From: a virus
Lineage: Duplodnaviria > Caudoviricetes
IMG/VR virus record: IMGVR_UViG_3300012984_000010
Strand: one strand, 5' to 3'
DNA length: 64,000 nucleotides
The position numbers were made by a program, and so were the translations under genes. Of the stretch, positions 5,860 through 42,139 are shown one piece after another. How positions within the stretch are numbered: position 1 is the first letter of the stretch; each line of letters opens with the position of its first letter. A model generated the notes under the pieces. That model was not told the origin of the DNA. It searched no databases and saw only the letters and a program-made list of their open reading frames with translations.

Positions 5860-6357
5860 TTATAGGCTCATCGCCAAATCGAACAGGGACCGTTCGTCCT
5901 CAACCCTTAGGCTGGATACAGGCACTTCCCCAATCACATTCTCATATCCCATCAGATAAGCCCGCCATTCCTTGGAATAGAACCCCAAGCTGGGAACACC
6001 TAGATACTGAGTCGAGTTCCACATCCGCACATTACAGGGACAGGCTTGCACCAGGCAATTGATTCTATCCTGGCTGACCGGAACCCCAAGAATCATGACT
6101 ATGGGGGATTCTCTCTCCGATCTGCCGGCAGGCGTCACCTCCACGTACTCGGCCGGTTCTGCCTTGAGTAGTTTGAGGACCGAGGTCAAAGCTGTGATCG
6201 AGCCTTTAAATCGGGGGAACTGCTTCCCCTTACAGGCCACGAACCAAATCTTATCCGAAGCAATCCCCCAAGCTGTGCCTTGAGGGTCAATGACGGTGAA
6301 GGGTTGATTGAACACAGGATCCTCCGATCCTACGAATCTAAAAAGAGAGTCAGTCAT
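5860..6357 (-). CDS. Hypothetical protein
   Basis: Start overlaps MTase stop; C-terminus SLFDLAMSL. Confidence 0.65.
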   Translation of the reverse strand: MTDSLFRFVGSEDPVFNQPFTVIDPQGTAWGIASDKIWFVACKGKQFPRFKGSITALTSVLKLLKAEPAEYVEVTPAGRSERESPIVMILGVPVSQDRINCLVQACPCNVRMWNSTQYLGVPSLGFYSKEWRAYLMGYENVIGEVPVSSLRVEDERSLFDLAMSL

Positions 6358-7624
6358 TCGACATAGCCAGATCAAAGAGATCTTTTTCAGCGTGCGCTTC
6401 AGCATGGTCTGCCCGCACCAGCTCAACCCGCTTGAGGGAGGTCTCATAAGATGGTCGATACCGTTCAATTCCAGTGAAGCTGCAACCTTCCTCAATAGCG
6501 GCATGCAAAGTAGAACCACTGCCACAATAAGGGTCCAGGGTCAGGCCTCCCTTGGGAGTCACCATCCGGACCAACCACCGCATGACCGCCAGCGGTTTCT
6601 TGGTGTTATGTTGGTTCTCGATCCGCCCATCAAGGGTCGCCTCTTTGGTGGAGGTCTTGGGGCAATACATGAACGGTACAGGGAAGACGTTGAAGTACCG
6701 GATCGTGTTGGCCTTCTGGTCTTCCAGCTCAGCTACAGGGCAGCCCAACGCCCCATTGGCATCAACGAACACCAGGTTGGCTGGAACTCGTCCCAATGGA
6801 TGACACACAATCCCATTGCCTGGAGGAGCAGCGATCTTCTTCGCGTCAGGCTTGTGGGTGTTGCCGCTACGCTTCCAGCCGTCAGAACGATCTGGTTCCT
6901 GCCAATCCGTGTAGACACGGCAGCCGTCGATATTGATACCCCCACAACCCCATTTCCTGATGTTCTCCACCACTGTTCCATCCAATGGTTTGCGGAACAT
7001 CATGACAGGCTCCCAAGCGGGCTTGAGATTGGTGTGCCAGCCATCCCACTGTTTGGCTTCCTCGGAAGCAGGAGCAGTGATGGTCAGTTCACCCGTAGGA
7101 CTGTTAGGCGCTCCCGTCGTGTAGGTGCCACCTTTGAGCTTGGTGGACGTCATCGCATTCCCACCGGCCTTGTAGCGATGAATCACCTCACGCTCTAATC
7201 CTAACTCCTTGTCGATCTGCTTCGAGATGTTGAGACCATGGTTCATCCCCATCCCTTGGATCCATTGTAGGGCAGGGTATTCCTCCGACAGGGTGTCCCG
7301 TAGTTCAAAGCCCGCCATTCTGATCCCCATTGAGATCAAGTCCCATGTGCGGGTCCCACCAAAGCTCAGCAGATACCCACCTGGACGAAGGACTCGATAG
7401 GCTTCTTTCCAGACCGCCACTGACGGGATATCCCAATCTGCCTTCATGAAGTCACCCGTCTTCAATGCGGCACCCCCCAAGAAGGCAAGTATTTCTTCAG
7501 GGGTCGGGTCCTTATCACCTAGACCGTACGGTACATCGGTAACAATCGAGTGGTAGGTATTGTCTGGTATTTGTTTGAGTATTTCGAGACAATCACCCAA
7601 CAGAACTTGATTCTCAAACTCCAT
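6350..7624 (-). CDS. DNA N6-adenine/N4-cytosine methyltransferase
   Basis: DVPYG catalytic motif, H.T.KP..VMRWLVRM, LDPYCGSGST SAM-binding motif. Confidence 0.9.
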   Translation of the reverse strand: MEFENQVLLGDCLEILKQIPDNTYHSIVTDVPYGLGDKDPTPEEILAFLGGAALKTGDFMKADWDIPSVAVWKEAYRVLRPGGYLLSFGGTRTWDLISMGIRMAGFELRDTLSEEYPALQWIQGMGMNHGLNISKQIDKELGLEREVIHRYKAGGNAMTSTKLKGGTYTTGAPNSPTGELTITAPASEEAKQWDGWHTNLKPAWEPVMMFRKPLDGTVVENIRKWGCGGINIDGCRVYTDWQEPDRSDGWKRSGNTHKPDAKKIAAPPGNGIVCHPLGRVPANLVFVDANGALGCPVAELEDQKANTIRYFNVFPVPFMYCPKTSTKEATLDGRIENQHNTKKPLAVMRWLVRMVTPKGGLTLDPYCGSGSTLHAAIEEGCSFTGIERYRPSYETSLKRVELVRADHAEAHAEKDLFDLAMSND

Positions 7625-17428: not shown

Positions 17429-17685
17429 TGCTGGTCATTCAGATCCAGATGTGGCCTAAGGGCGACAAGTCGAAAGCCTATTCGCTTGGGACGTTGACGG
17501 TGGCGTTGAGCAAGGTGTTGACCAAGAACTTCTCCAACCGAGGTTACGATTGGGCGATCACCAAGAAAGGGGATCGCCAGACCTGGAAAACTGGCGAGAT
17601 TACTGGACACAATCCTCGAACCAGGGCACAGTGGGACCTCGTTTACCGAATTCTCAAGCAAGCGGTTGGAGATAGAAACCTGTGA
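17428..17685 (+). CDS. Hypothetical protein
   Basis: Translationally coupled ORF. Confidence 0.65.
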   Translation: MLVIQIQMWPKGDKSKAYSLGTLTVALSKVLTKNFSNRGYDWAITKKGDRQTWKTGEITGHNPRTRAQWDLVYRILKQAVGDRNL

Positions 17686-18458
17686 CACGGACGATATTCA
17701 TTGGAGATGTACATGGTTGTCTGACAGAATTCTTGGAACTCATATGGCTCCTTGATCTGCAACCGGAAGACCAGGTGGTGTGCCTGGGGGATATGATGGA
17801 TAAGGGACCGTGTCCAGCGCCTTGCCTGTCGTTCGTCTACGCAGCGGCTTTCCACAACCCTAACTTCCGATCCATCAAGGGCAACCATGAGGAGCGTCAT
17901 GTCAGATGGCGTCGACATTGGGAGCGTGCTCAGACAGATTCCAAGTATGTTATACCGATGACTCGACCTATGACACCTCAAGATCAGGCAGCCAACTTGG
18001 AACTGGATCTTGGAGTCATCAATTGGGCGGCCAACCTACCTATCACATTGGAGCCAGTCAGCGGATGGTTGGCGGTTCATGGGGGATTACGACCCAACCT
18101 ACCATTGAGAAATCAACCAGAGGATGAGATCATTCGGCTTCGGTTGGTTGACAAGATTACAGGCAAGCACATTCCTACCGACTACGAGAAAGGTACGCCT
18201 CCACCAGAAGGTGCGGTCCATTGGACTGAACTCTATGATGGTTCATACAATGTAGTGTATGGCCACGAAGCCCATAGTCTATCCAAGCCTCGTGTGGATC
18301 ATCGCCCCCAGGGAGTTACCTGTTATGGGATCGATACGGGAGTGGTGCACGGCGGACATCTGACCGCTTTGGTGCTGGAGGGGTCAGATGTGAATTTCGT
18401 TCAGGTCAAGGCCAAAGCCGTGTACATGGAACCGCCACATGGACCGATCCCCGACTGA
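17682..18458 (+). CDS. Metallophosphoesterase (PrpA/ApaH-like)
   Basis: GDVHG, GDMMDKG, GNHE, VHGG, GHE, IDTG. Confidence 0.92.
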   Translation: MTRTIFIGDVHGCLTEFLELIWLLDLQPEDQVVCLGDMMDKGPCPAPCLSFVYAAAFHNPNFRSIKGNHEERHVRWRRHWERAQTDSKYVIPMTRPMTPQDQAANLELDLGVINWAANLPITLEPVSGWLAVHGGLRPNLPLRNQPEDEIIRLRLVDKITGKHIPTDYEKGTPPPEGAVHWTELYDGSYNVVYGHEAHSLSKPRVDHRPQGVTCYGIDTGVVHGGHLTALVLEGSDVNFVQVKAKAVYMEPPHGPIPD

Positions 18459-18460
18459 TG

Positions 18461-19027
18461 TTAGTCCTGATCCAGCTGATTAGTCGGGTCGAAATCTTTC
18501 AGCAATTTATTCTTCCGTAGCTTGAGCAGACAGTTTCTGAATTGAGGGTTATCCAGAGCCACCATACGGTATTTCTGGCTGACCCTCTTTTGCTGCACCC
18601 TGTTGATACATTCGGCACCACTCCAACCGTAGAGGAAATGCAGTGCTAGTGCCGAGACCAATCCAGAACGGTTGATGCCAGCAGCACACGTTACTAGTAC
18701 TTTCTGCCCTTGGTTGACTGCTTCCGCCACTTGTCGCCCCGCATCTACGGCTATTTGCAGCAAGTCTCGTGGGATCTTTTGAGTGTAATCGTCGCTGTTG
18801 GGGGCGTACAGGATCCGGACTCCAGGGTACTCCTCGGCCGGATCTTGCAATTCTTCTGCACAGAACACCAGCATATTGAAGCCAGCCTTCGCTACACTAG
18901 CTTGGACCTTTGGATAAGGACCTTGCCAGAGGTTGGGGACTATTTCGTCTGCCCCCAACCTCTGTAACTCAAGCTCGAAAGCTTTGATCTCAGTCTCCGC
19001 TACCTCTATCAATTTCTTGACGCTCAT
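18461..19027 (-). CDS. Dual-specificity/tyrosine phosphatase-like protein
   Basis: CX5R motif CAAGINRS. Confidence 0.88.
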   Translation of the reverse strand: MSVKKLIEVAETEIKAFELELQRLGADEIVPNLWQGPYPKVQASVAKAGFNMLVFCAEELQDPAEEYPGVRILYAPNSDDYTQKIPRDLLQIAVDAGRQVAEAVNQGQKVLVTCAAGINRSGLVSALALHFLYGWSGAECINRVQQKRVSQKYRMVALDNPQFRNCLLKLRKNKLLKDFDPTNQLDQD

Positions 19028-21005
19028 CTTTGATGTTCTCTTCCCTCAACGACTCAAGTTCAGCCTTGAAGCCACCTGAGAGGATGGGGAACCTACACCA
19101 GGAACGTGGGTCTAGATTCTTGCGGTCGACGTTGAATGCAGGAGCGTACCGCTCCCTCTTCCACTGATTCCGATACCAGAGTGTGAAGAACTTCTCGATG
19201 TGTCGAGCGATAGTCGGCTTGCTACCTTGGCTCTTCAGCGTTCTGTAGACTTCCAGCGGGCTCTTCTTTTCCAGAATCGCCAGGTCCTCAATCTGCTCCA
19301 GGACATCGTACGGCATCAAGTCCGTCTCGTCCGTTTGATTGCTTCCTGGGCGCAGTTCGGCGGTCGGCTGTTGGTTGACCACATGCTTCAAGCAGGGGTA
19401 GTCAAAGAAGGATTGGGTTCTCAACCACTTGAGGAGGAAAGCCTTTCCGATCCCTCCAATGGGGGCGATGCTACCAGAAGTGTCTCCATCCATGGTGCAA
19501 TAGCCAACCGCCGCCTCGGAACGATTGCTGGTTGTGATCAACAACTTCTGCTCGATGTTGGCCACCATCCAAATGCTAGGGGAACGCACTCGGGCCTGGA
19601 TGTTCTGAAGCGCCAAGTCGTCAGTCTCCCAGGACAGGTCTCTTCCCAACGCATGGGCGATCTTTTGCGTGTATTGGTCCACCAGCCCGTCTACGTCGAT
19701 GGCGAGGAACTTGGCCTCAATCCCCTCAGCCACCTTCCTGGCAGCCGTATAGGTCACCTCAGAGCTGTTCTTGGTGCTCTGATACATGCAGGTCAGGATC
19801 TGATTGAATTCGGTATCTGGAGGCAACCTTAAGTGCTTGAGTAATCCTTCTTGGCCGAAAGTATCACACCCTGTATTCCACATCATCTTCACCAAAACCG
19901 CACAAGCAGCGGAATCGGCGCCACCACTGAGAGAGATGACGAACCCTTTGGAATAGGCCTTCCGCATGTAGTCACATAGGGCCAGCGGAATCGCTAATGA
20001 GAAATCTTCAGCGTCCTCTGTGTCGGCTACTCCCAAATCACGGGTAGAAACACTTCCACTGAATTCAGGGATCTCTACAACACCGCGAACAGCCTGGATT
20101 TCGGACACATCTGGCATGAAACTAGCGGTGCTGGATTGTTTGGTCCTAGTAGCGTCGATATCAACCACGGCCGTCGTCAGAGTGACAGGCTTGAAGGAGA
20201 ACCGTTCCCCTCTGGCCACCATACTGCCGTTCGTAGCAATCAGGTTGCCCCCATCGTAGATGGCTCGGCCCGCCTCGTTACCTAGGAGATTGGCGTACAC
20301 GTACGTAACTCCAAAGGCCCTGGAACCCTCCAAGATGAAGCGTTGCCGTACCTGATATTTTCCGAAAGCAAAATGGCTGGCCGACGGGTTGAGGATCAGG
20401 TCCACCCCATGTTGAGAGAGTTTGACCCCAGGACGATTGGCCACCCAAGCATCTTCACAGATCTCGAAGCCAACACGGAAGGCCCTTCTATTTGTATCTT
20501 GTAGGTCAAAGTCGAACAGCAGGTCTCCGATTGGAATAGGGTGTTCAGCATCATCCTGAGATGAGTCGATTCTGCAGAAACCTGAAAGTACCTTCACGCC
20601 CGCCGGCCAGGGTTTGAACCAACGAGGTTCGTAGTGCAGACCGTCGCCCGCCAGATGTTGCTTGGCCACGAACCCCAGCACTTCTCCTGAATCAATCATG
20701 GCTGAGACGTTGTATAGGGCGTTCTGAAACAGGAAAGGGAGACCCACACAGACCTTCATCGAGATGTTGTGTGAATCCATGTATTCGGCAATCTCACGTA
20801 ATGTTTCCAGGGCCCTCTCTTGTACATCGTGTGAATGGAAGTGATCTTCACAACCATATCCAGTGATGCAGAGTTCCGGCAAACAGAGAATGTTGACGCC
20901 GGCCTCCTTTGCGGCATCGATGGCAGAGATGATGTTCTGGTAGTTACCTTCCCAATCGAGAGGGGTTTGATTTAGCGAAGCGGCGCCGACTTTGATGAGT
21001 TGCAT
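18990..21005 (-). CDS. nadE: Glutamine-dependent NAD+ synthetase
   Basis: CN-hydrolase domain (LPELCITGY, EICED) plus SLSGGADS, NIQAR.R, SEAAVGYCTMDGD, PTAEL. Confidence 0.95.
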   Translation of the reverse strand: MQLIKVGAASLNQTPLDWEGNYQNIISAIDAAKEAGVNILCLPELCITGYGCEDHFHSHDVQERALETLREIAEYMDSHNISMKVCVGLPFLFQNALYNVSAMIDSGEVLGFVAKQHLAGDGLHYEPRWFKPWPAGVKVLSGFCRIDSSQDDAEHPIPIGDLLFDFDLQDTNRRAFRVGFEICEDAWVANRPGVKLSQHGVDLILNPSASHFAFGKYQVRQRFILEGSRAFGVTYVYANLLGNEAGRAIYDGGNLIATNGSMVARGERFSFKPVTLTTAVVDIDATRTKQSSTASFMPDVSEIQAVRGVVEIPEFSGSVSTRDLGVADTEDAEDFSLAIPLALCDYMRKAYSKGFVISLSGGADSAACAVLVKMMWNTGCDTFGQEGLLKHLRLPPDTEFNQILTCMYQSTKNSSEVTYTAARKVAEGIEAKFLAIDVDGLVDQYTQKIAHALGRDLSWETDDLALQNIQARVRSPSIWMVANIEQKLLITTSNRSEAAVGYCTMDGDTSGSIAPIGGIGKAFLLKWLRTQSFFDYPCLKHVVNQQPTAELRPGSNQTDETDLMPYDVLEQIEDLAILEKKSPLEVYRTLKSQGSKPTIARHIEKFFTLWYRNQWKRERYAPAFNVDRKNLDPRSWCRFPILSGGFKAELESLREENIKDERQEIDRGSGD

Positions 21006-21008
21006 CGT

Positions 21009-22631
21009 TCAACCTTTCAAACACGCTTGAGCCAGCACTTCTTGCTTGCGTGCTCGGCATTGATTGATCAGACGTTGAGTTTCAGCAGAGAAGACTGGGG
21101 GTTCTCTTCTGATGCTACCTTGGTTCGGCGGCAGCACGTCGTCCGATTCCTTGTCGGTGAGAAGGTAGTAGGAATCGAGGGAGATCTGTTCTCCCTCTTG
21201 AGCGATGATGCTGGCCGGCATCCGATGAGCATCCACACCAGGGCGGATGCGCCAAATCACCGGCATGCCTGGAATTGATTCTTTGGCACTCTTGGGTTCA
21301 TCTCCGAACTTCATTGTTGAGAGACTACCACTCTGAGAAAGCTTCCACACCGCCGCCACATCGTCCCGTGAGAAAGTGGGCCACTCTGGCTTGGTGAAGT
21401 AGCCCCCATATCCGTACGCTTGTCGATCCATCGGCCATCGAACCTGCTTACGCAATTCTTCGAATTCGACCGTCAGTTCCTTGTTCCAACCGCTCTCAAG
21501 AGCTAGACGAGGCTCCAACCCTTTCTCCCTCGCCAACGCGACCGTGTAGGTGTAATGACTGCGGACGTTGGCTTCCGAGTCGAACCGGATCCCCGCATCA
21601 CGTCCGGGGTCTTCCGCGATCACCCGCAACGCACTGGGAACGCCAGACATGAGGGTACTGGTGGTGTCGGGCAGGTAGAAGAGAAAGCCTGGAAACCGGT
21701 CTTTCATCGCCGTATAGGCGGCGTAATCGTCGAGATTGAACCGCTGTGGGTGTTCGTGACCCATCGTTCCGACTGGGATCATGTTGAGTTTTTGAGCCAA
21801 CTCAACGTTAGAGGTACGCAGCACACCCGCGTCCTTGATGGCCTTGAGCACAATCTCATGTTGCTCTGAACACGAGACTCCTCGCATTCCGACCTCGAAC
21901 AAGCGATCAGGGTTTTCCACGATACCTACCAGTTCTTTGGCACGTCGGTAAACCCACTCGTAATAAGCCTGCTCACGAACCTCGATATTGAATTGAGGTA
22001 GGAGTTTGATCTTGGATCCTAGGTCGATTGCTAGAGAATCCAGCGTTTCCAGGATGATGTCCTTTTCTCGCTGACAGGTGGCGAATCGAATACGCTCAGC
22101 CAGCTCGGCAGTCTTCCCCGCCTTGTAGAGTGTCGCGAGCTGGATTCGAAAGTTTAGCTGGAGAGCGGTAGGTTCCAACCAGCTTGAAACCGCACTAGGG
22201 CCCTTGGCGAAAAAAGCTGGCTCCCGATTGTAGAACCAGGAACCCTTCGGGACTGAACTGATGCGTAGATTGTCCTTGAGGGAGAAAGCCTTACGAAAAC
22301 CAGCACCTACCTCATAGTTGTGTTGGCTCAAGTAATCGTAATCGGTAGGATCGTTGATCACGTCAGGTAGGAGGTCTTTCACGAACTTCTTGACATCTAC
22401 CGGCATGTAGTGCCAACCATTGACCCCGCCCTTGCGGTGTGAGTAGCCGAAAGTCTCCTCGCGAAGGGCAAAGCCCGCCTCAGCCATCGAAATCTTGTAT
22501 GCGTCTGTACGTAGCAATTTGGTCATGACCAACATTACACCAAATAATCTGATTTTCCGGCAGGAATCTGCTCTTAAGATCCTGATCCCTATGACCGTAG
22601 GTACATGTGACGGCACTGAAATGCCGTCCAC
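21009..22631 (-). CDS. pncB: Nicotinate/nicotinamide phosphoribosyltransferase
   Basis: LRTDAYK.SM, GTMGHE, PDT, GIRFDS. Confidence 0.75.
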   Translation of the reverse strand: MDGISVPSHVPTVIGIRILRADSCRKIRLFGVMLVMTKLLRTDAYKISMAEAGFALREETFGYSHRKGGVNGWHYMPVDVKKFVKDLLPDVINDPTDYDYLSQHNYEVGAGFRKAFSLKDNLRISSVPKGSWFYNREPAFFAKGPSAVSSWLEPTALQLNFRIQLATLYKAGKTAELAERIRFATCQREKDIILETLDSLAIDLGSKIKLLPQFNIEVREQAYYEWVYRRAKELVGIVENPDRLFEVGMRGVSCSEQHEIVLKAIKDAGVLRTSNVELAQKLNMIPVGTMGHEHPQRFNLDDYAAYTAMKDRFPGFLFYLPDTTSTLMSGVPSALRVIAEDPGRDAGIRFDSEANVRSHYTYTVALAREKGLEPRLALESGWNKELTVEFEELRKQVRWPMDRQAYGYGGYFTKPEWPTFSRDDVAAVWKLSQSGSLSTMKFGDEPKSAKESIPGMPVIWRIRPGVDAHRMPASIIAQEGEQISLDSYYLLTDKESDDVLPPNQGSIRREPPVFSAETQRLINQCRARKQEVLAQACLKG

Positions 22632-25092: not shown

Positions 25093-25164
25093 GGGGGCGT
25101 AGCTCAGCGGTAGAGCAAGGGATTCTAAAACCCTAGGCCGTGGGTTCGAATCCCACTGTCCCCT
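25093..25164 (+). tRNA. Amber suppressor tRNA (CUA), short variable loop, U73
   Basis: GGGGGCG/TGTCCCC; AGGGA-TTCTAAA-ACCCT with CTA at 25125-25127; T-arm GTGGG-TTCGAAT-CCCAC. Confidence 0.9.
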
Positions 25165-25169
25165 CTCAA

Positions 25170-25260
25170 GCCTTCGTCGCTCAGCGGCCAGAGCAGCAGA
25201 TTCTAAAACTGCGTGAGTCCTCATGGATGAAGATCGTGGGTTCGAGTCCCACCGAAGGCA
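25170..25260 (+). tRNA. Amber suppressor tRNA (CUA), long variable arm, A73 (Leu-like)
   Basis: GCCTTCG/CGAAGGC-A; GCAGA-TTCTAAA-ACTGC with CTA at 25203-25205; 23-nt variable region. Confidence 0.88.
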
Positions 25261-25262
25261 CC

Positions 25263-25589
25263 CTAGGTAAGAGCCAGTGACAACCCTCTGCAAAGCTTCT
25301 TGGCAGCAGGACCCAGCAACGCAACTGCCGTGAGTTCGTTGTTTCGGTCTGGTTCATTGAACGATGCCGAGAATATGTTCCGCATCTAAGCCTTGTCCAG
25401 AAGCACTTTAAGTGTAGGTTCGTCCTCCACTACCAGAAAGGCCAGTGTGTTGGAATCGTGGTACCACTCTTTGAACGGTTCAGGGTGCTGCATACTTAGC
25501 TCTGTCAGCGCGTGAGCCGACTGAACAGCTTGTTGTCCAGGCGACAAGTCAACCCTGGTGATCAGGTACAGTTTAGAGGAGGGTTTCAT
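25263..25589 (-). CDS. PTH2-like peptidyl-tRNA hydrolase with in-frame TAG at 25386-25388
   Basis: KLYLITRVDLSPGQQAVQSAHA ... LLDKA*MRNIFSASFNEPDRNNELTAVALLGP; the domain continues past TAG to give 108 codons. Confidence 0.8.
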
Positions 25590-26040: not shown

Positions 26041-26945
26041 GAGACACCTCCCAAAAGAGCCTTGGCGTACTGTAGGGCGTCACGAATCTTCTCCACATAA
26101 TGTCCTGAGAAGATCTCACTACGATGGGTAACCCCATCCTTGTAGATCACCAGCTTGACCGGTCCGGTCTTGACCGCCCATTCAAAGTCAATCGTGTAAG
26201 GCTGGGTAGGAGTCTTGGAAGCAATCCGCTTGCAGAATCGGCTCTCTTCTAGCTTGAGTTCTGGGGCCCACCCTTCGTAGGTCCAACCAATACCATGGTT
26301 CTTCTCAGGGTTGAAGATAGGGTCTTTCAGCCCTTCAACGAAGGCTAGGTAGAGAGGGTCGTTGTTGAAGAAGTCGGTCCACCAAAGGTCAGACTCTCGG
26401 CGACGATTGGCCCTATTGCGTGTCTCCTCAGCCGAGACCCATAGCTTATCGGCCTCATCGTCTGAGATCATGTCGTACAGCAAATCCTCTTCATTGAAGT
26501 GAATCCGCCCCCACCACGCCACCACCTCATTGTTCGAGAAGTCTAGTGTGGGTCTTTCTTTGGCTCGCTTGTAGTAGCCCTCTGAGTCTTTCTGGTGAGC
26601 ACCCAAAGCTCTCTTCCCACTCTCATCGTAATCGCAATGAGTCCCTACGCTCTCCTGGAAGTCTCGATGACGTCGATACAGTTCTCCGATCTGTTCATCT
26701 TCGAGCCGAACGATTGCGAAGTTGCGGCCAGTCAGATGTCCCTCTTCAACATCTGAGCTCAAACCTACTACTCCGTCCAACACGCATTCGAACCAATGTT
26801 CGTGACCTCCCATCAGGATGACACCAGACAATACCCCATCCCAATAACTGCAGTGCCACAACATCTTGAAATCGACGTCTCGCTTCTTGTGGGGCAGGTC
26901 TCGGATGAGACGGAAGTCGGACTTTGCCTCAGCCAGAGTGGTCAT
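26037..26945 (-). CDS. Hypothetical protein (amber-gated operon)
   Basis: 302-aa coupled ORF. Confidence 0.7.
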   Translation of the reverse strand: MTTLAEAKSDFRLIRDLPHKKRDVDFKMLWHCSYWDGVLSGVILMGGHEHWFECVLDGVVGLSSDVEEGHLTGRNFAIVRLEDEQIGELYRRHRDFQESVGTHCDYDESGKRALGAHQKDSEGYYKRAKERPTLDFSNNEVVAWWGRIHFNEEDLLYDMISDDEADKLWVSAEETRNRANRRRESDLWWTDFFNNDPLYLAFVEGLKDPIFNPEKNHGIGWTYEGWAPELKLEESRFCKRIASKTPTQPYTIDFEWAVKTGPVKLVIYKDGVTHRSEIFSGHYVEKIRDALQYAKALLGGVS

Positions 26946-27433
26946 CAGGCCAACACCCTAGACAGGAGGGATGAGAACCAGTTCTTCGGCTTGACCGGTA
27001 CCACAACCATTGGGGCATCTGGTGGTTGTGAAGTACCCTTCCCATACATCAATTCGTAAATCTGCAAAGGATCCCAAGTGTTGATGACCTGACGCTCTTC
27101 CTCAGTCCAGGTTTTGGCGTCCTCATTGATGCCAAAAGCTCTGTAGATGTGCCACGAAACTGTCTTTGGATACGGAGGTTCTGAACACTTAGCTTCCAAA
27201 TCCTGGTATGGGCGACCACGAAGAATAGCGTAGGCAATGTAGAGGTGTCGGAGCGAGTCTTGTGTACCGTTCACGTAGTCTAGACGTAGCTGATAGCGCT
27301 CTGGACCCGTATCAGCACTGGACGTGACACAGTTCTTCAGCTCATGCAGCTTGGTCCTAAGAACCGGCTTTTCAGCCGAAAGGTCTTTGATCTTCTGTCG
27401 AATGTGGGCAATCGCGGCTTTATGGGAATTCAT
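26945..27433 (-). CDS. Hypothetical protein, first gene after amber/RAPP leader
   Basis: 162 aa, RHLYIAYAILRGRPY..LE; SD AGGAG lies in a hairpin. Confidence 0.75.
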   Translation of the reverse strand: MNSHKAAIAHIRQKIKDLSAEKPVLRTKLHELKNCVTSSADTGPERYQLRLDYVNGTQDSLRHLYIAYAILRGRPYQDLEAKCSEPPYPKTVSWHIYRAFGINEDAKTWTEEERQVINTWDPLQIYELMYGKGTSQPPDAPMVVVPVKPKNWFSSLLSRVLA

Positions 27434-27526
27434 AATCGTCTCCTGTAGATAGCTAGTACACTGAATGGGGGCAGTGTACGCTACAGGAGGGGCTCGCGAC
27501 TTCGGACAATTCAGCTACAAGAACAT
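27434..27526 (-). promoter_or_regulatory. Translational attenuator leader: ATG TTC TTG TAG ... RAPP plus SD-sequestering hairpin
   Basis: Readthrough gives MFL*LNCPKSRAPPVAYTAPIQCTSYLQETI in frame with the 27433 ATG; stems CTCCTGTAG/CTACAGGAG and GTACACTG/CAGTGTAC. Confidence 0.75.
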
Positions 27527-31608: not shown

Positions 31609-31914
31609 ATGCCCGAACTGGATCCCAGCGTCTGTTACGTCTGCTGTCGGAAGAAAAAACCTACATACGCCAATTTAGGTCTGTGTCGGTTCTGCTATCA
31701 ATCATTGGTGCGCACCGATGGGGCGTTGTCCAATCGTGTAGCATCGATGATGTGGGCTGCCGATCGAGCTAGGAAGGCGCAACGTAAACCGTCCGTTAAA
31801 GCAACGAAATTGCTGAATAAACTGATCAAGACATCTAAAACACCAGCTCCTGTGGACTTGAGCAAGCTCGACCCCTCTTTCTTGGCTAAAGTATTTGCAG
31901 AATCAGGTGAATGA
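31609..31914 (+). CDS. Hypothetical zinc-finger-like protein
   Basis: CxxC...CxxC; divergent TACACC/GGTGTA motif upstream. Confidence 0.55.
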   Translation: MPELDPSVCYVCCRKKKPTYANLGLCRFCYQSLVRTDGALSNRVASMMWAADRARKAQRKPSVKATKLLNKLIKTSKTPAPVDLSKLDPSFLAKVFAESGE

Positions 31915-32612
31915 TGATCAAATATCCCAAGACACCTCGCCTCAAGTCTGTGCTGGAAGACGACAAGCTGCTCAAGTCGTGGCGCAAACATCATACCGTC
32001 ATCTCGGAAAAACTAGATGGGGCGAACGCTGGCATCAGCTTCAGTCCAGAGGGTCTGCTGATGCTCCAAAGCCGGGGCCACGTCCTCACAGGAGGCCATA
32101 GGGAGCGTCAATTCGAACTTTTCAAGCAGTGGGGGCACGGCAATCTGCAGGCCCTCTACGGGGCACTGGGGGACCGTTATGTGCTATTTGGAGAATGGCT
32201 CTATGCCAAGCACAAGATCTTCTACGACGCCCTACCAGGGTACTTCGTCGAGTACGATGTCTACGACAAGGAGAAAGAACACTTCATGTCGACCGAACGG
32301 CGGGCCCAGCTGATTGGGCAACTAGGTATCCCTCCAGCTCCTATCCTTCATCAAGGCACGTTCGGCAAGATCAATAGTTTTGCCAAGTACATAGGAGATT
32401 CGGCTTTCAAGACGGTCGAGTGGAAGCGACATCTTGAATCGTTGGAAGGAACAGATGACTCAACCTTGATGGAGGGTATCTACATCAAGGTTGAAGATGA
32501 AGAGAAGGTGGTTGGCCGAATCAAGTTCCCTCGCCCTGAATTCGAGAAAATAAGGGACGACAACACCGACTGGCTGCGTCGGCCGATCATCAAGAATCTA
32601 CTTCAGGGGTGA
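31911..32612 (+). CDS. ATP-dependent RNA ligase family protein
   Basis: KYPKTPRL, EKLDGAN (motif I), FGEW, FVEYDVY, EGIYIK. Confidence 0.88.
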   Translation: MMIKYPKTPRLKSVLEDDKLLKSWRKHHTVISEKLDGANAGISFSPEGLLMLQSRGHVLTGGHRERQFELFKQWGHGNLQALYGALGDRYVLFGEWLYAKHKIFYDALPGYFVEYDVYDKEKEHFMSTERRAQLIGQLGIPPAPILHQGTFGKINSFAKYIGDSAFKTVEWKRHLESLEGTDDSTLMEGIYIKVEDEEKVVGRIKFPRPEFEKIRDDNTDWLRRPIIKNLLQG

Positions 32613-37266: not shown

Positions 37267-37485
37267 TTGGTCAAATGGTACCACATTTGAGCCACCTTGA
37301 CACACTGAAAATTGCGTGATAAAGGAACGGTCGGCCCTTCCTTTGGGCCAGCACCGTCAACCGGTCTTCCCATACAGGACCTTGTTTGATGGCAAAGTGG
37401 GTACGCGCCTGCATGGGATTTTGACTTGGTGCTTCGGATCGGATTGAGAGTATGGGTCTCAGCATCCGATCTTGTCGAGGTCCCA

Positions 37486-38676
37486 ATGTCCAGAAAATTC
37501 AAGAAGCTAGCCCAAGAACTGTCCCAAAAGACTGGCACCTCCTATGCGGGGGCGGTCAATCTGTTGAGGAAAGGTAATCGACGTCCGCCTCAAGCTCCGC
37601 TTACGATCCTCCAGTACTGCGATGAATTAGGGATCGCGCTATATCCAGTCCAACGTTTCATCCTCAAGATGCTTTATCATCTGAAGCTGGACTCCAAAAT
37701 ACCTCGTCACCCCCATAAGCGCATAGTGGTGAGAGACCCTCTAGATCCGTCCAAGAAGCCAAAAATACTTTCCGAGGTTGGGTATCTCAAGTTCTTGTAC
37801 GATGCGGGGCGCTGTAATATTGGAGTGCAGGACCACGCTCGACGCCAAATAGTGGGGGTGTTGGGTCGCCGTTCGGGAAAGACCACCTTGTCCGCTCTGT
37901 TCACTTCATATGAAACCTACCGACTGCTTCAGTTGGGAAACCCTCAAGCACACTACGGTTTGCCTGAAGGTAATCGCATACAGGTATTGGCAGTATCGCA
38001 CGACAAAGATCAAGCTGGATTCTTGTTCAATGAAGTGACCAGCCACATCACCAGGTTAGATTCTTTCAAGGACAGTGTGGCAAGCAATACTCAGACTAGC
38101 CTCAAGTTTCGAACTTCACATGACTTGGAACAGAAAGAGGTGAGGCCCAGCATTCAAGCCAATTTCAAGAGCTGTTTAGCCAGTAGTCTCAGAGGGTATT
38201 CCAATGCGGCGATTGTACTGGATGAGGTAGCGTTTTTCCACACGGGAGAGGATACCTATATGGCTTCAGCGCCTAGCACGGCCTGGTATAGTCAAAAAGG
38301 GGCCGGCAGAATGCTCCTCATCTCTACTCCTGATGGCAAAGAAGGGACGCTGTTCCGGCTACATAGATTGGCCTTGAACGGCCCAATAGAGCAAACAGAC
38401 GACCTGTTGATGCTCCAAATCCCCACGTGGGAAGCCAATCCCAAGTTACCTGATTCGATTTACATGGCCGCTAAAGAACAGGGAACGTTCGCAGAATGGT
38501 CCGCGAAGTTCGTCGCTAAGAAGCCGCCTCCCCCTATTGTGACTCCAATCGTTCAAGATACTGTACAGTCGGATATCAAGCTGCAATTCATGGCTGAGAT
38601 GCTTCAACAGTTGTCGGCTGAGCAGTTGAGTCAGTTGATTCAACTGGCGAATCAACGGCTAAATCAGGTTGTTTGA
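37486..38676 (+). CDS. Terminase large subunit-like ATPase (no evident nuclease domain)
   Basis: Walker A LGRRSGKT, Walker B IVLDEVAF, coupling motif LISTP, PTWEANP. Confidence 0.8.
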   Translation: MSRKFKKLAQELSQKTGTSYAGAVNLLRKGNRRPPQAPLTILQYCDELGIALYPVQRFILKMLYHLKLDSKIPRHPHKRIVVRDPLDPSKKPKILSEVGYLKFLYDAGRCNIGVQDHARRQIVGVLGRRSGKTTLSALFTSYETYRLLQLGNPQAHYGLPEGNRIQVLAVSHDKDQAGFLFNEVTSHITRLDSFKDSVASNTQTSLKFRTSHDLEQKEVRPSIQANFKSCLASSLRGYSNAAIVLDEVAFFHTGEDTYMASAPSTAWYSQKGAGRMLLISTPDGKEGTLFRLHRLALNGPIEQTDDLLMLQIPTWEANPKLPDSIYMAAKEQGTFAEWSAKFVAKKPPPPIVTPIVQDTVQSDIKLQFMAEMLQQLSAEQLSQLIQLANQRLNQVV

Positions 38677-41293: not shown

Positions 41294-42139
41294 ATGTCTC
41301 GCATCATTTGGTCGACCGACACTCATCTCAATTTCCTGAAGTTCCCGAACGGAGCTATGGCTTTCGGTGAGTATTTGCGCAAAGAGCAGCCAGCCGACGC
41401 GCTGGTGATCACAGGGGATATCTCGGAAGGGTTAGAGGTAGAACACCATATCAAAGAAGTCCAAAAAGGCTTCGAGAAACCAGTCTACTTCGTACTAGGC
41501 AACCACGACTATTACCGTAGCTCGTTTGCAGAGATTGATCGGAAGATGGCTTCTGTGCCTGGTTGGTTGACCAAGGCTGGAGTGGTCGAAATAGCCGAAG
41601 GTGTGGCGTTGGTGGGGAATGAGGGTTGGTACGATGGGGAGTTTGGGTACCCCTACGCCAGATTTGGGATGGCAGATTGGTCCCTAATCAGTGAGCTGAA
41701 GTCCTACATATCGAGGGACGATTTGCTGGCAAAGATTAGGGCTCGTGCGACTGCGGCTGTGTCGGCTGCTTGCGATGTTTTGGAAGAAGCCGTCTCCAAG
41801 TATCAGCTGGTACTTTTTGCCACACATGTCCCTCCTTTCCGAGAGAGTGCTTGGCACGAAGGTCAAATCAGCAACGACACCTACCTACCTTGGTTCAGCA
41901 GCAAGAGGATGGGGGACATGTTGATGCAGGTGGCGGAGGCTAACCCCACCAAACGTATCCTGGTCCTGTGTGGCCATAGTCACAGCTTCGGAACCTATGA
42001 TGCAGCCCCTAATCTGAAGGTTTTGACCGGTAAGGCGATCTATGGGGCTCCCGACTTGGCGGGTATCCTGGAAATACAGGGTGGAAAGATCAACGTCTCG
42101 ATGCGGGACAATAGCTGGCTGGATATAGGTGTGTTCTGA
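41294..42139 (+). CDS. Metallophosphoesterase (Icc/CpdA-like)
   Basis: TDTHL, TGDIS, GNHD, THVPP, GHSH. Confidence 0.9.
   Translation: MSRIIWSTDTHLNFLKFPNGAMAFGEYLRKEQPADALVITGDISEGLEVEHHIKEVQKGFEKPVYFVLGNHDYYRSSFAEIDRKMASVPGWLTKAGVVEIAEGVALVGNEGWYDGEFGYPYARFGMADWSLISELKSYISRDDLLAKIRARATAAVSAACDVLEEAVSKYQLVLFATHVPPFRESAWHEGQISNDTYLPWFSSKRMGDMLMQVAEANPTKRILVLCGHSHSFGTYDAAPNLKVLTGKAIYGAPDLAGILEIQGGKINVSMRDNSWLDIGVF

Follow-up and report, generated by a model that had tools for sequence, protein, structure and literature searches.

Two adjacent CUA tRNA genes beside a PTH2-like gene with an in-frame TAG: a candidate stop-codon suppression module in a tailed phage

In this work, we analyzed a 64,000-nt stretch of DNA (hereafter, the window) from the virus record IMGVR_UViG_3300012984_000010 (Duplodnaviria; Caudoviricetes), focusing on two adjacent transfer RNA (tRNA) genes with a CUA anticodon, designated Sup1 and Sup2, and on the protein-coding gene next to them. 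Sup1 encodes a class I tRNA(CUA) of 72 nt (25093..25164, + strand) and Sup2 a tRNA(CUA) of 91 nt with a long variable arm (25170..25260, + strand); the 5-nt spacer between them (25165..25169, + strand) reads CTCAA. Convergent with Sup2, and beginning 3 nt past its discriminator base A73, lies a gene with the fold of peptidyl-tRNA hydrolase 2 (PTH2) (25263..25589, - strand), which contains an in-frame TAG at codon 68 (25386-25388).

The two CUA tRNA genes

The initial annotation had proposed two amber suppressor tRNAs sharing an anticodon block and an A31-A39 mismatch, one with a short variable loop and U73 and the other with a long variable arm and A73, and had named ARAGORN as a check. ARAGORN called both genes on the + strand of the window with a CTA anticodon (25093-25165 and 25170-25262), both matched Rfam family RF00005 (Sup1, 66.3 bits, E 3e-12; Sup2, 52.8 bits, E 2e-8; gathering score, 29), and direct reading of the sequence agreed with the two programs and confirmed the variable regions and discriminators. 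The acceptor stem of Sup1 is G-rich, GGGGGCG pairing with TGTCCCC through two G-U pairs among others, and is followed by U73 (25164); its variable loop has 5 nt, its anticodon lies at 25125-25127, position 32 is U, and A31 (25122) and A39 (25130) are unpaired. In Sup2, GCCTTCG pairs with CGAAGGC, the discriminator is A73 (25260), positions 8 and 9 are U8-C9, the anticodon lies at 25203-25205, the variable region spans 23 nt (25213-25235), and A31 (25200) and A39 (25208) are again unpaired. The 11-mer GATTCTAAAAC (A31 U32 U33 CUA A37 A38 A39) is identical in both genes and, as A31 and A39 are unable to pair, the anticodon stem of each tRNA is 4 bp long and the loop measures 9 nt. The pair 27-43 is formed in both. 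Both genes have the full set of canonical tRNA elements (U8, G18G19, U33, A37 and the T loop), with CUA at positions 34-36 correctly placed between U33 and A37, as expected of an amber suppressor tRNA; neither encodes CCA. The 5-nt spacing implies a putative single precursor transcript for the two tRNAs.

At minimum free energy, Sup2 folds into a cloverleaf whose anticodon stem has 4 bp and whose variable hairpin is small. Sup2 orthologs were found in the viral loci L035, L219/L222 and L169, and have in common U8-C9, the D arm, A31 and the UUCUAAA loop. The cloverleaf is kept in the four orthologs compared (window, L035, L219 and L169), with compensatory changes in 11 of 24 pairs, the variable hairpin included, and this hairpin is clear and covarying in L035, L219 and L169. 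No close ortholog of Sup1 was found, and the covariation result therefore concerns the Sup2 family only. The ARAGORN label tRNAPyl was rejected for both genes. Such tRNAs have a 3-nt variable loop, a 6-bp anticodon stem, a very small D loop without G18G19 and an atypical T loop, whereas the D loops of the window tRNAs (AGCGGTA and AGCGGCCA) contain GG, their T loops read TTCGAAT or TTCGAGT, their variable regions measure 5 and 23 nt and their anticodon stems have 4 bp. The label was due to the CTA anticodon alone.

The PTH2-like gene and its linkage with suppressor tRNAs

The PTH2-like gene matches Pfam family PF01981 with 28.6 bits (cut-off, 23) in an alignment that spans the TAG, and the 40 residues after the TAG match the family profile with an E value of 3e-11. 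The AlphaFold model of the read-through product has a pLDDT (predicted local distance difference test) of 95.2; Foldseek aligned it with the Pth2 structures 2zv3, 1q7s, 3erj and 1xty at template modelling (TM) scores of 0.76-0.82, and the family profile likewise retrieved Pth2 structures from PDB (E 3e-15). PF01981 was matched by 7 of the 11 PTH2-like family members, and scores against the NCBIfam Pth2 equivalog models were far below the cut-offs. Among the Pth2 catalytic residues, those retained are T87, the Q..HA motif and an acidic residue (E79, aligned with the Asp of Pth2). A product terminated at the TAG, of 67 residues, would be without this conserved acidic residue and the two final strands. 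The gene itself ends at another TAG (25263-25265), the suppression of which would add 13 codons that run antisense across the 3' half of Sup2 up to a TGA. From these sequence and model data, the PTH2-like gene is the most probable cis target of Sup1 and Sup2.

The association of this gene family with suppressor tRNAs extends beyond the window. A PTH2-like gene was found in 21 of the 42 viral loci fetched by the tRNA pattern alone, versus 0 of 118 control loci. The reverse search returned 260 PTH2-like relatives in IMG/VR, and among the best 80 of these 260 loci, which were analyzed, a suppressor-type tRNA lies no more than 3 kb away in 63 (amber in 47, only ochre in 4, only opal-type in 11 and irregular in 1), usually just downstream of the PTH2-like gene and on the same strand. 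In the genome collection, the family occurred on contigs of metagenome-assembled genomes (MAG) only; a CTA tRNA was present in all 15 contigs scanned (17 were fetched) and was the only tRNA of the locus in most of them. These MAG contigs (L249-L265) are assigned to very different phyla, archaea included, and are probably mis-binned phage contigs; one of them (425,361 bp) is the same contig that IMG/VR lists as viral. Beside the CUA tRNAs of phages XacN1, Xoo-sp13 and CBB, a PTH2-like gene was not detected, and no paper linking Pth2 with phage suppressor tRNAs was found in the literature searched.

In-frame stops within PTH2-like genes were found in the window and in about nine other lineages, at no fewer than seven different positions, and they are always TAG, never TGA or TAA. 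The TAG stands at residue 68 in the window, ~59 in L169, 37 in L176, 94 in L177, 3 in L205/206 and L232, 30 in L219/222, 38 in L256 and L264, and 66 in L257, and conservation of the PTH2-like sequence continues after it. The residues aligned with the TAG sites are mostly E, Q and K, that is, one-step mutational neighbours of TAG, and are thus compatible with Gln insertion but not diagnostic of it. The recurrence of a stop that is always TAG, together with the conservation beyond it, is indirect evidence, the best obtained here, that these tRNAs decode UAG. Taken together, the suppressor tRNA or tRNAs and the PTH2-like gene appear, from sequence comparison, to form a conserved phage "suppression module".

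Other suppressor and termination-related genes occur in the same surroundings. Opal (UCA) suppressors follow many PTH2-like genes (L210 3332-3407, L217 3975-4123, L228 4321-4473, L220 2726-2876, L216 3752-3825, and others); ARAGORN gives these tRNAs "anticodons" of two or four bases or calls them Glu(TTC), their loops read A/C-U-U-UCA-A in a non-standard loop/stem register, and they are often in tandem. Ochre (TTA) tRNAs follow the PTH2-like gene in L180, L188, L195 and L215. Genes for transfer-messenger RNA (tmRNA) lie ~0.5-3 kb from amber suppressor tRNAs in XacN1 (L001 5148-5568), L017 (985-1384), L021 (7834-8163), L181 and L196, a proximity that suggests a wider neighbourhood of termination and rescue genes.

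It could be argued that Sup1 and Sup2 do not decode at all, and are instead decoys or tRNA-like regulators, occupying host tRNA-targeting nucleases or the PTH2-like protein, or else decaying copies. The window does contain genes of the RNA-repair type, for an RNA ligase (31911-32612) and for phosphoesterases, and the missing CCA would fit such a role. Nevertheless, the complete set of canonical elements described above, the compensatory evolution among the orthologs, and the exclusive use of TAG for the in-frame stops of the linked gene, which is sensible only if UAG is decoded, make a non-decoding role very unlikely.

Probable paralogy, amino-acid identity and the open 31/39 pair

The two tRNAs had been regarded as unrelated scaffolds, a view that did not hold. 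They differ little in the D and T arms, and within the window each matches the other best (54/72), while the four other anticodon-stem pairs differ completely and 31/39 and the loop are kept. They thus look like diverged paralogs, as in the tandem of the Xanthomonas jumbo phage XacN1 (AP018399), and with such paralogy, inheritance or gene conversion, and not convergence, may account for the identical anticodon block within the pair. XacN1 resembles the window in its standard code and in its two adjacent CUA tRNAs, 7 nt apart (5 nt in the window), which are the closest database relatives of Sup1 and Sup2 and have the same D and T arms; Sup2 is identical to XacN1 Sup2 at 61 of 73 positions and has a similar acceptor stem (GCYTTCG). 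The XacN1 genes are, however, identical to each other except in the acceptor stem and discriminator; both are 76-nt class I tRNAs that encode CCA and carry A73 and G73, whereas the window combines a class I and a long-arm tRNA with U73 and A73. Their 31/39 pair is also open, as C-A instead of the A-A with U32 seen in the window. Phage Xoo-sp13 and Pectobacterium phage CBB, also standard-code jumbo phages, have single CUA tRNAs. Pairs of a class I and a long-arm CUA tRNA were also found in L009 and L035/L053; L009, a 607-kb phage contig, has in addition a tRNA with a four-base anticodon (ggaa, ARAGORN) at 1944-2020.

Two CUA tRNAs were present in 16 loci, nine of which, the window included, are tight tandems, defined by a gap of at most 10 nt (observed gaps, 0-10 nt). 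Eight of these nine combine A73 with G73 (XacN1, L009, L017, L035, L163, L178, L185 and L226) and the window combines U73 with A73, so that equal discriminators occur in none. ARAGORN had placed the start 1 nt early in L179, L183 and L226, which were re-read by eye; only L226 is among the tight tandems. Overall (n=98), the discriminator was A in 46, G in ~30, U in ~16 and C in ~5. With acceptor stem, discriminator and variable region all different, Sup1 and Sup2 are probably charged by different synthetases, possibly with two amino acids. Earlier proposed on structural grounds, the difference in identity is therefore supported.

Comparison with sense tRNAs did not single out the amino acids inserted. 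The best full-length phage matches of Sup1 include tRNA-Trp(CCA), as do the only matches of the 5' half of Sup2, for which the best blastn matches are tRNA-Trp. When 238 sense tRNAs from phage loci were compared in a masked nearest-neighbour test, Sup1 tied between Trp and Lys at 56/72 and Sup2 gave no single isotype; comparison with E. coli tRNAs was uninformative (best match, tRNA-His at E = 6). The 23-nt region of Sup2 forms a hairpin as in a class II variable arm, although a weak one in the window, and Sup2 had been called Leu-like. This assignment found no support: Sup2 shares its 4-bp D arm (GCTC/GAGC) with its class I partner, the nearest neighbours favour no single isotype, and A73 is seen in the window, L219 and L169 but G73 in the ortholog of L035. 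Other phage suppressors, those of L171 and L186, do carry a canonical D arm of class II. Among the well-known E. coli suppressors, Su7 is a tRNATrp with a CUA anticodon that is mostly charged with Gln, and class II examples are supF (Tyr) and supP (Leu). The anticodon loop of the window tRNAs, YUCUAAA followed by A39, is like that of tRNATrp-derived suppressors, but Sup1 has U73 and G1-C72 instead of G73 and A1-U72; Sup2 is like supP and supF in A73 and the long arm, and unlike them in its class I type D arm.

The open 31/39 pair was surveyed in a first sample of 49 distinct CUA tRNAs, collected by scanning IMG/VR with two patterns (D arm plus anticodon loop; in the second, positions 38 and 39 were free) and by a metagenome pattern scan in which, among the matches listed, most were chance matches, only L035 and L053 being real and the rest serving as controls. 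Positions 31 and 39 were unable to pair in 22 of the 49 CUA tRNAs versus 5 of 107 sense tRNAs from the same loci (Fisher p 4e-9), although related tRNAs are not phylogenetically independent, so that such p-values overstate the support and are only indicative. The 22 mismatches comprise nine C-A, six A-C, three A-A and four others. In a replication with a sample chosen via the neighbouring protein, the pair was open in 20 of 51 CUA tRNAs. Within the first sample, pairs 28-30 were never mismatched, and the rate of mismatch at 27-43 was equal in the CUA and sense sets. This broad enrichment supports the earlier proposal that the mismatch is selected, whereas convergence on unrelated scaffolds within the pair, on which that proposal had been built, is not sustained. 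In a broad sense, then, the 31/39 mismatch looks to be under selection; tuned low readthrough or nuclease resistance as its function is speculation.

Alternatively, the mismatch could be functionless, a legacy of the duplication that gave the pair or made uniform by gene conversion, the tRNAs working despite it. The identical 11-mer and the nearly identical D and T arms of Sup1 and Sup2 would be expected under this explanation, the XacN1 paralogs also share an identical anticodon arm, and in L169, the closest Sup2 ortholog, U39 pairs with A31, so that even this subfamily has an exception to the mismatch. On the other hand, 31/39 and the loop were kept while the four other stem pairs diverged fully, all 10 of the U32-type CUA tRNAs in the first sample are mismatched, and the ~8-fold enrichment in CUA tRNAs comes from many unrelated contigs and from different forms (C-A, A-C, A-A and C-C). 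We regard a neutral origin as rather unlikely, if still worth weighing.

Some precedents for a role of this position have been described. The 31-39 pair sets the charging of amber suppressors by lysyl-tRNA synthetase (LysRS) versus glutaminyl-tRNA synthetase (GlnRS), a weak or flexible pair favouring Lys and C31-G39 favouring Gln (Fukunaga et al. 2006, PMC1483225). That work used engineered variants of yeast tRNATyr and E. coli tRNALys with Watson-Crick pairs, whereas the window tRNAs have a natural mismatch at the same position of a CUA tRNA. Short anticodon stems have been associated with stop-codon reading in Blastocrithidia-like tRNATrp (PMC13092985), and have been proposed to relax wobble, with C34 pairing with A (Schultz & Yarus 1994, as cited in PMC13092985); with such a relaxation, a CUA tRNA could also read UAA. 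In the Blastocrithidia-like tRNAs, the top pair 27-43 is open, the loop has 7 nt and reading is near-cognate, while in the window tRNAs the bottom pair 31-39 is open, the loop has 9 nt and the anticodon is fully cognate to UAG. Bottom-opened stems were left aside in that study (PMC13092985), which did not cover phages. By analogy with these systems, 31/39 is a plausible tuning site.

Code usage, genomic setting and the proposed suppression module

Stop use in 91 crude gene calls (self-trained on the window) was TGA in 56, TAA in 19 and TAG in 16. Reading past the 16 TAG stops gave short non-coding extensions, the sole exception being a methylase with a chance in-frame neighbour; a fusion of this methylase (6350-7624) with the in-frame, TAG-terminated open reading frame (ORF) upstream was rejected, as it is without homology support. 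TAG sites with an open frame and coding signal on both sides were likewise discarded as antisense artefacts, and a single in-frame TAG in the window, that of the PTH2-like gene, is backed by homology. As TAG is frequent as a terminator and the extensions are non-coding, the window uses the standard code, and genome-wide TAG recoding of the code 15 type is not seen in it. It is still conceivable that recoding is partial, or genome-wide with late or structural genes elsewhere using TAG as a sense codon, the TAG of the PTH2-like gene then being one of many. Suppressor tRNAs do correlate with recoding in phages, and standard-code relatives can gain suppressors first (bioRxiv 10.1101/2021.08.26.457843); one in-frame TAG is certain, and the stretch inspected is of 64 kb. 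In crAss-like, Lak and other recoded phages, TAG is read as Gln (code 15) via a phage CUA tRNA (PMC9523058), and the window is like crAss-like and Lak phages in having a phage CUA tRNA that would be charged by the host and read an in-frame TAG in a phage gene. It differs from them in that TAG is an ordinary, non-depleted terminator (16/91), the in-frame TAG backed by homology is one, and the GC content (52-53% throughout) is unlike that of the low-GC recoded lineages. In XacN1, moreover, read-through of 18 amber stops revealed no targets (PMC5852040). Altogether, these data make recoding an improbable explanation. With the standard code kept, Sup1 and Sup2 would be partial suppressors, and not agents of genome-wide recoding.

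A further element that may depend on UAG is a mini-ORF, ATG-TTC-TTG-TAG (27515..27526, - strand). Its ATG precedes the start codon (ATG, 27433) of the gene at 26945-27433 (- strand) by 31 codons in the same reading frame. The mini-ORF is a possible second candidate, either as an N-terminally extended protein or as a translated leader; no Pfam match was obtained for the read-through product of the mini-ORF and this gene.

As for the genomic setting, ARAGORN called 13 tRNA genes in the window, 11 of them in an array at 155-2988 on the - strand and the two with a CTA anticodon on the + strand, ~22 kb from that array, in accordance with the position and opposite strand noted in the initial annotation. 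Two further matches within the array were missed by ARAGORN: an Rfam-only class II tRNA of 85 nt (1877-1961, - strand; 35.7 bits) with a TGA (Ser) anticodon loop and G73, and a partial Rfam tRNA match (1991-2059, - strand) of 29.2 bits, at the threshold. Upstream of Sup1 on the same strand, an ADP-ribosylglycohydrolase (ARH) gene (PF03747, E 7e-71) and a groES gene (PF00166) were identified as previously described, but the hicA gene reported with them was not, since HicA was matched in none of the upstream ORFs. A scan for sigma-70 promoters and intrinsic terminators near the tRNAs gave nothing above shuffled sequence and none bracketing the tRNAs, so that their suggested place at the end of the upstream transcript is conjectural. 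When INPHARED was searched with the DNA of the locus for near and distant relatives, only tRNA-sized matches and no related phage genome were returned; in IMG/VR, the 302-aa neighbour protein gave no match, and the search with the ARH gene led to a single distant locus that has no tRNAs.

Among the further genes of the window are those for an NAD synthase, a DNA methylase, an RNA ligase and phosphoesterases. PHROG matches to phosphatase/phosphoesterase and RNA ligase families (17682-18458, 31911-32612 and 41294-42139, all on the + strand) indicate a possible tRNA/RNA repair set. A glutamine-dependent NAD synthase of 671 aa lies directly after a 540-aa ORF, in the same frame across a TGA (18990-22631, - strand); the 540-aa ORF has a weak match to NAPRTase, making the two an NAD salvage pair. 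Finally, a 416-aa ORF (37426-38676, + strand) matches only the inner part of terminase large-subunit profiles (phrog_2, 352-435 of 807); this terminase may be split or highly diverged, and reading TAG as sense gives no extension.

Overall, we consider it likely that Sup1 and Sup2 are functional phage amber suppressors, diverged paralogs with two identity sets, whose clearest target is the PTH2-like gene. The two tRNAs would be processed from one precursor, given CCA and charged by two host synthetases, so that two tRNA species, each charged independently and possibly with different amino acids, would probably read UAG in competition with release factor 1. Suppression would be partial, the phage keeping its standard code, and the open 31/39 pair, through the 4-bp anticodon stem, might tune synthetase choice or decoding. 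Full-length, foldable PTH2-like protein would then be made only when the UAG at codon 68 is read through. Two roles for this protein can be envisaged: it may hydrolyse the aminoacyl- or peptidyl-tRNA of the suppressors, limiting readthrough as a negative feedback, or it may clear peptidyl-tRNA from ribosomes that have run past stops, an option raised by the tmRNA genes that adjoin suppressor tRNAs in XacN1 and in the four other loci mentioned above. It is tempting to speculate that these parts constitute a dedicated stop-codon suppression module, in which weakened-stem suppressors, often of two identities, and a UAG-gated enzyme of the PTH2 fold set the level of readthrough by their own feedback loop, a proposal that we put forward as tentative and on balance doubtful.

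Several observations weigh against the explanation that we favour. The minimum-free-energy fold of Sup1 is not a cloverleaf, though both tRNA finders accept it, and the variable hairpin of Sup2 is the weakest of its family, with 4 bp or with six positions that include a C-A mismatch. The survey of TAG covers the 64-kb window, and genome-wide TAG recoding might apply to those relatives whose PTH2-like gene is interrupted by a TAG. Besides, the phage family has Q, Y, A, S or N (Q19 in the window) in place of the canonical Lys of the Pth2 GK motif, and hydrolase activity is therefore not assured.

Phage amber suppressors and the tandem pair of XacN1 were already known, and the authors of the XacN1 study sought targets of its suppressors and found none (PMC5852040). 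Four features appear to be undescribed in the literature searched: the pairing of a class I with a long-arm tRNA, discriminators that complement each other, an open 31/39 pair as a trait of the family, and the amber-gated PTH2-like partner. Suppressor tRNAs in phages with the standard code have long been annotated without a known purpose, and the PTH2-like gene supplies a natural target for them; it would be the protein half of the module, having acquired an in-frame UAG repeatedly and independently. The paired, unequal discriminators and the ~40% of CUA tRNAs with an open 31/39 pair make dual identity and tuned suppression directly testable. These results bear on the start of stop-codon reassignment in phages, on the debate about short anticodon stems and stop-codon reading, and on genetic-code expansion, for which amber suppressor scaffolds that are natural and distinct from each other are sought. 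If true, the feedback module would explain how suppressors are tolerated in standard-code phages, and would represent a stage before full stop-codon recoding.

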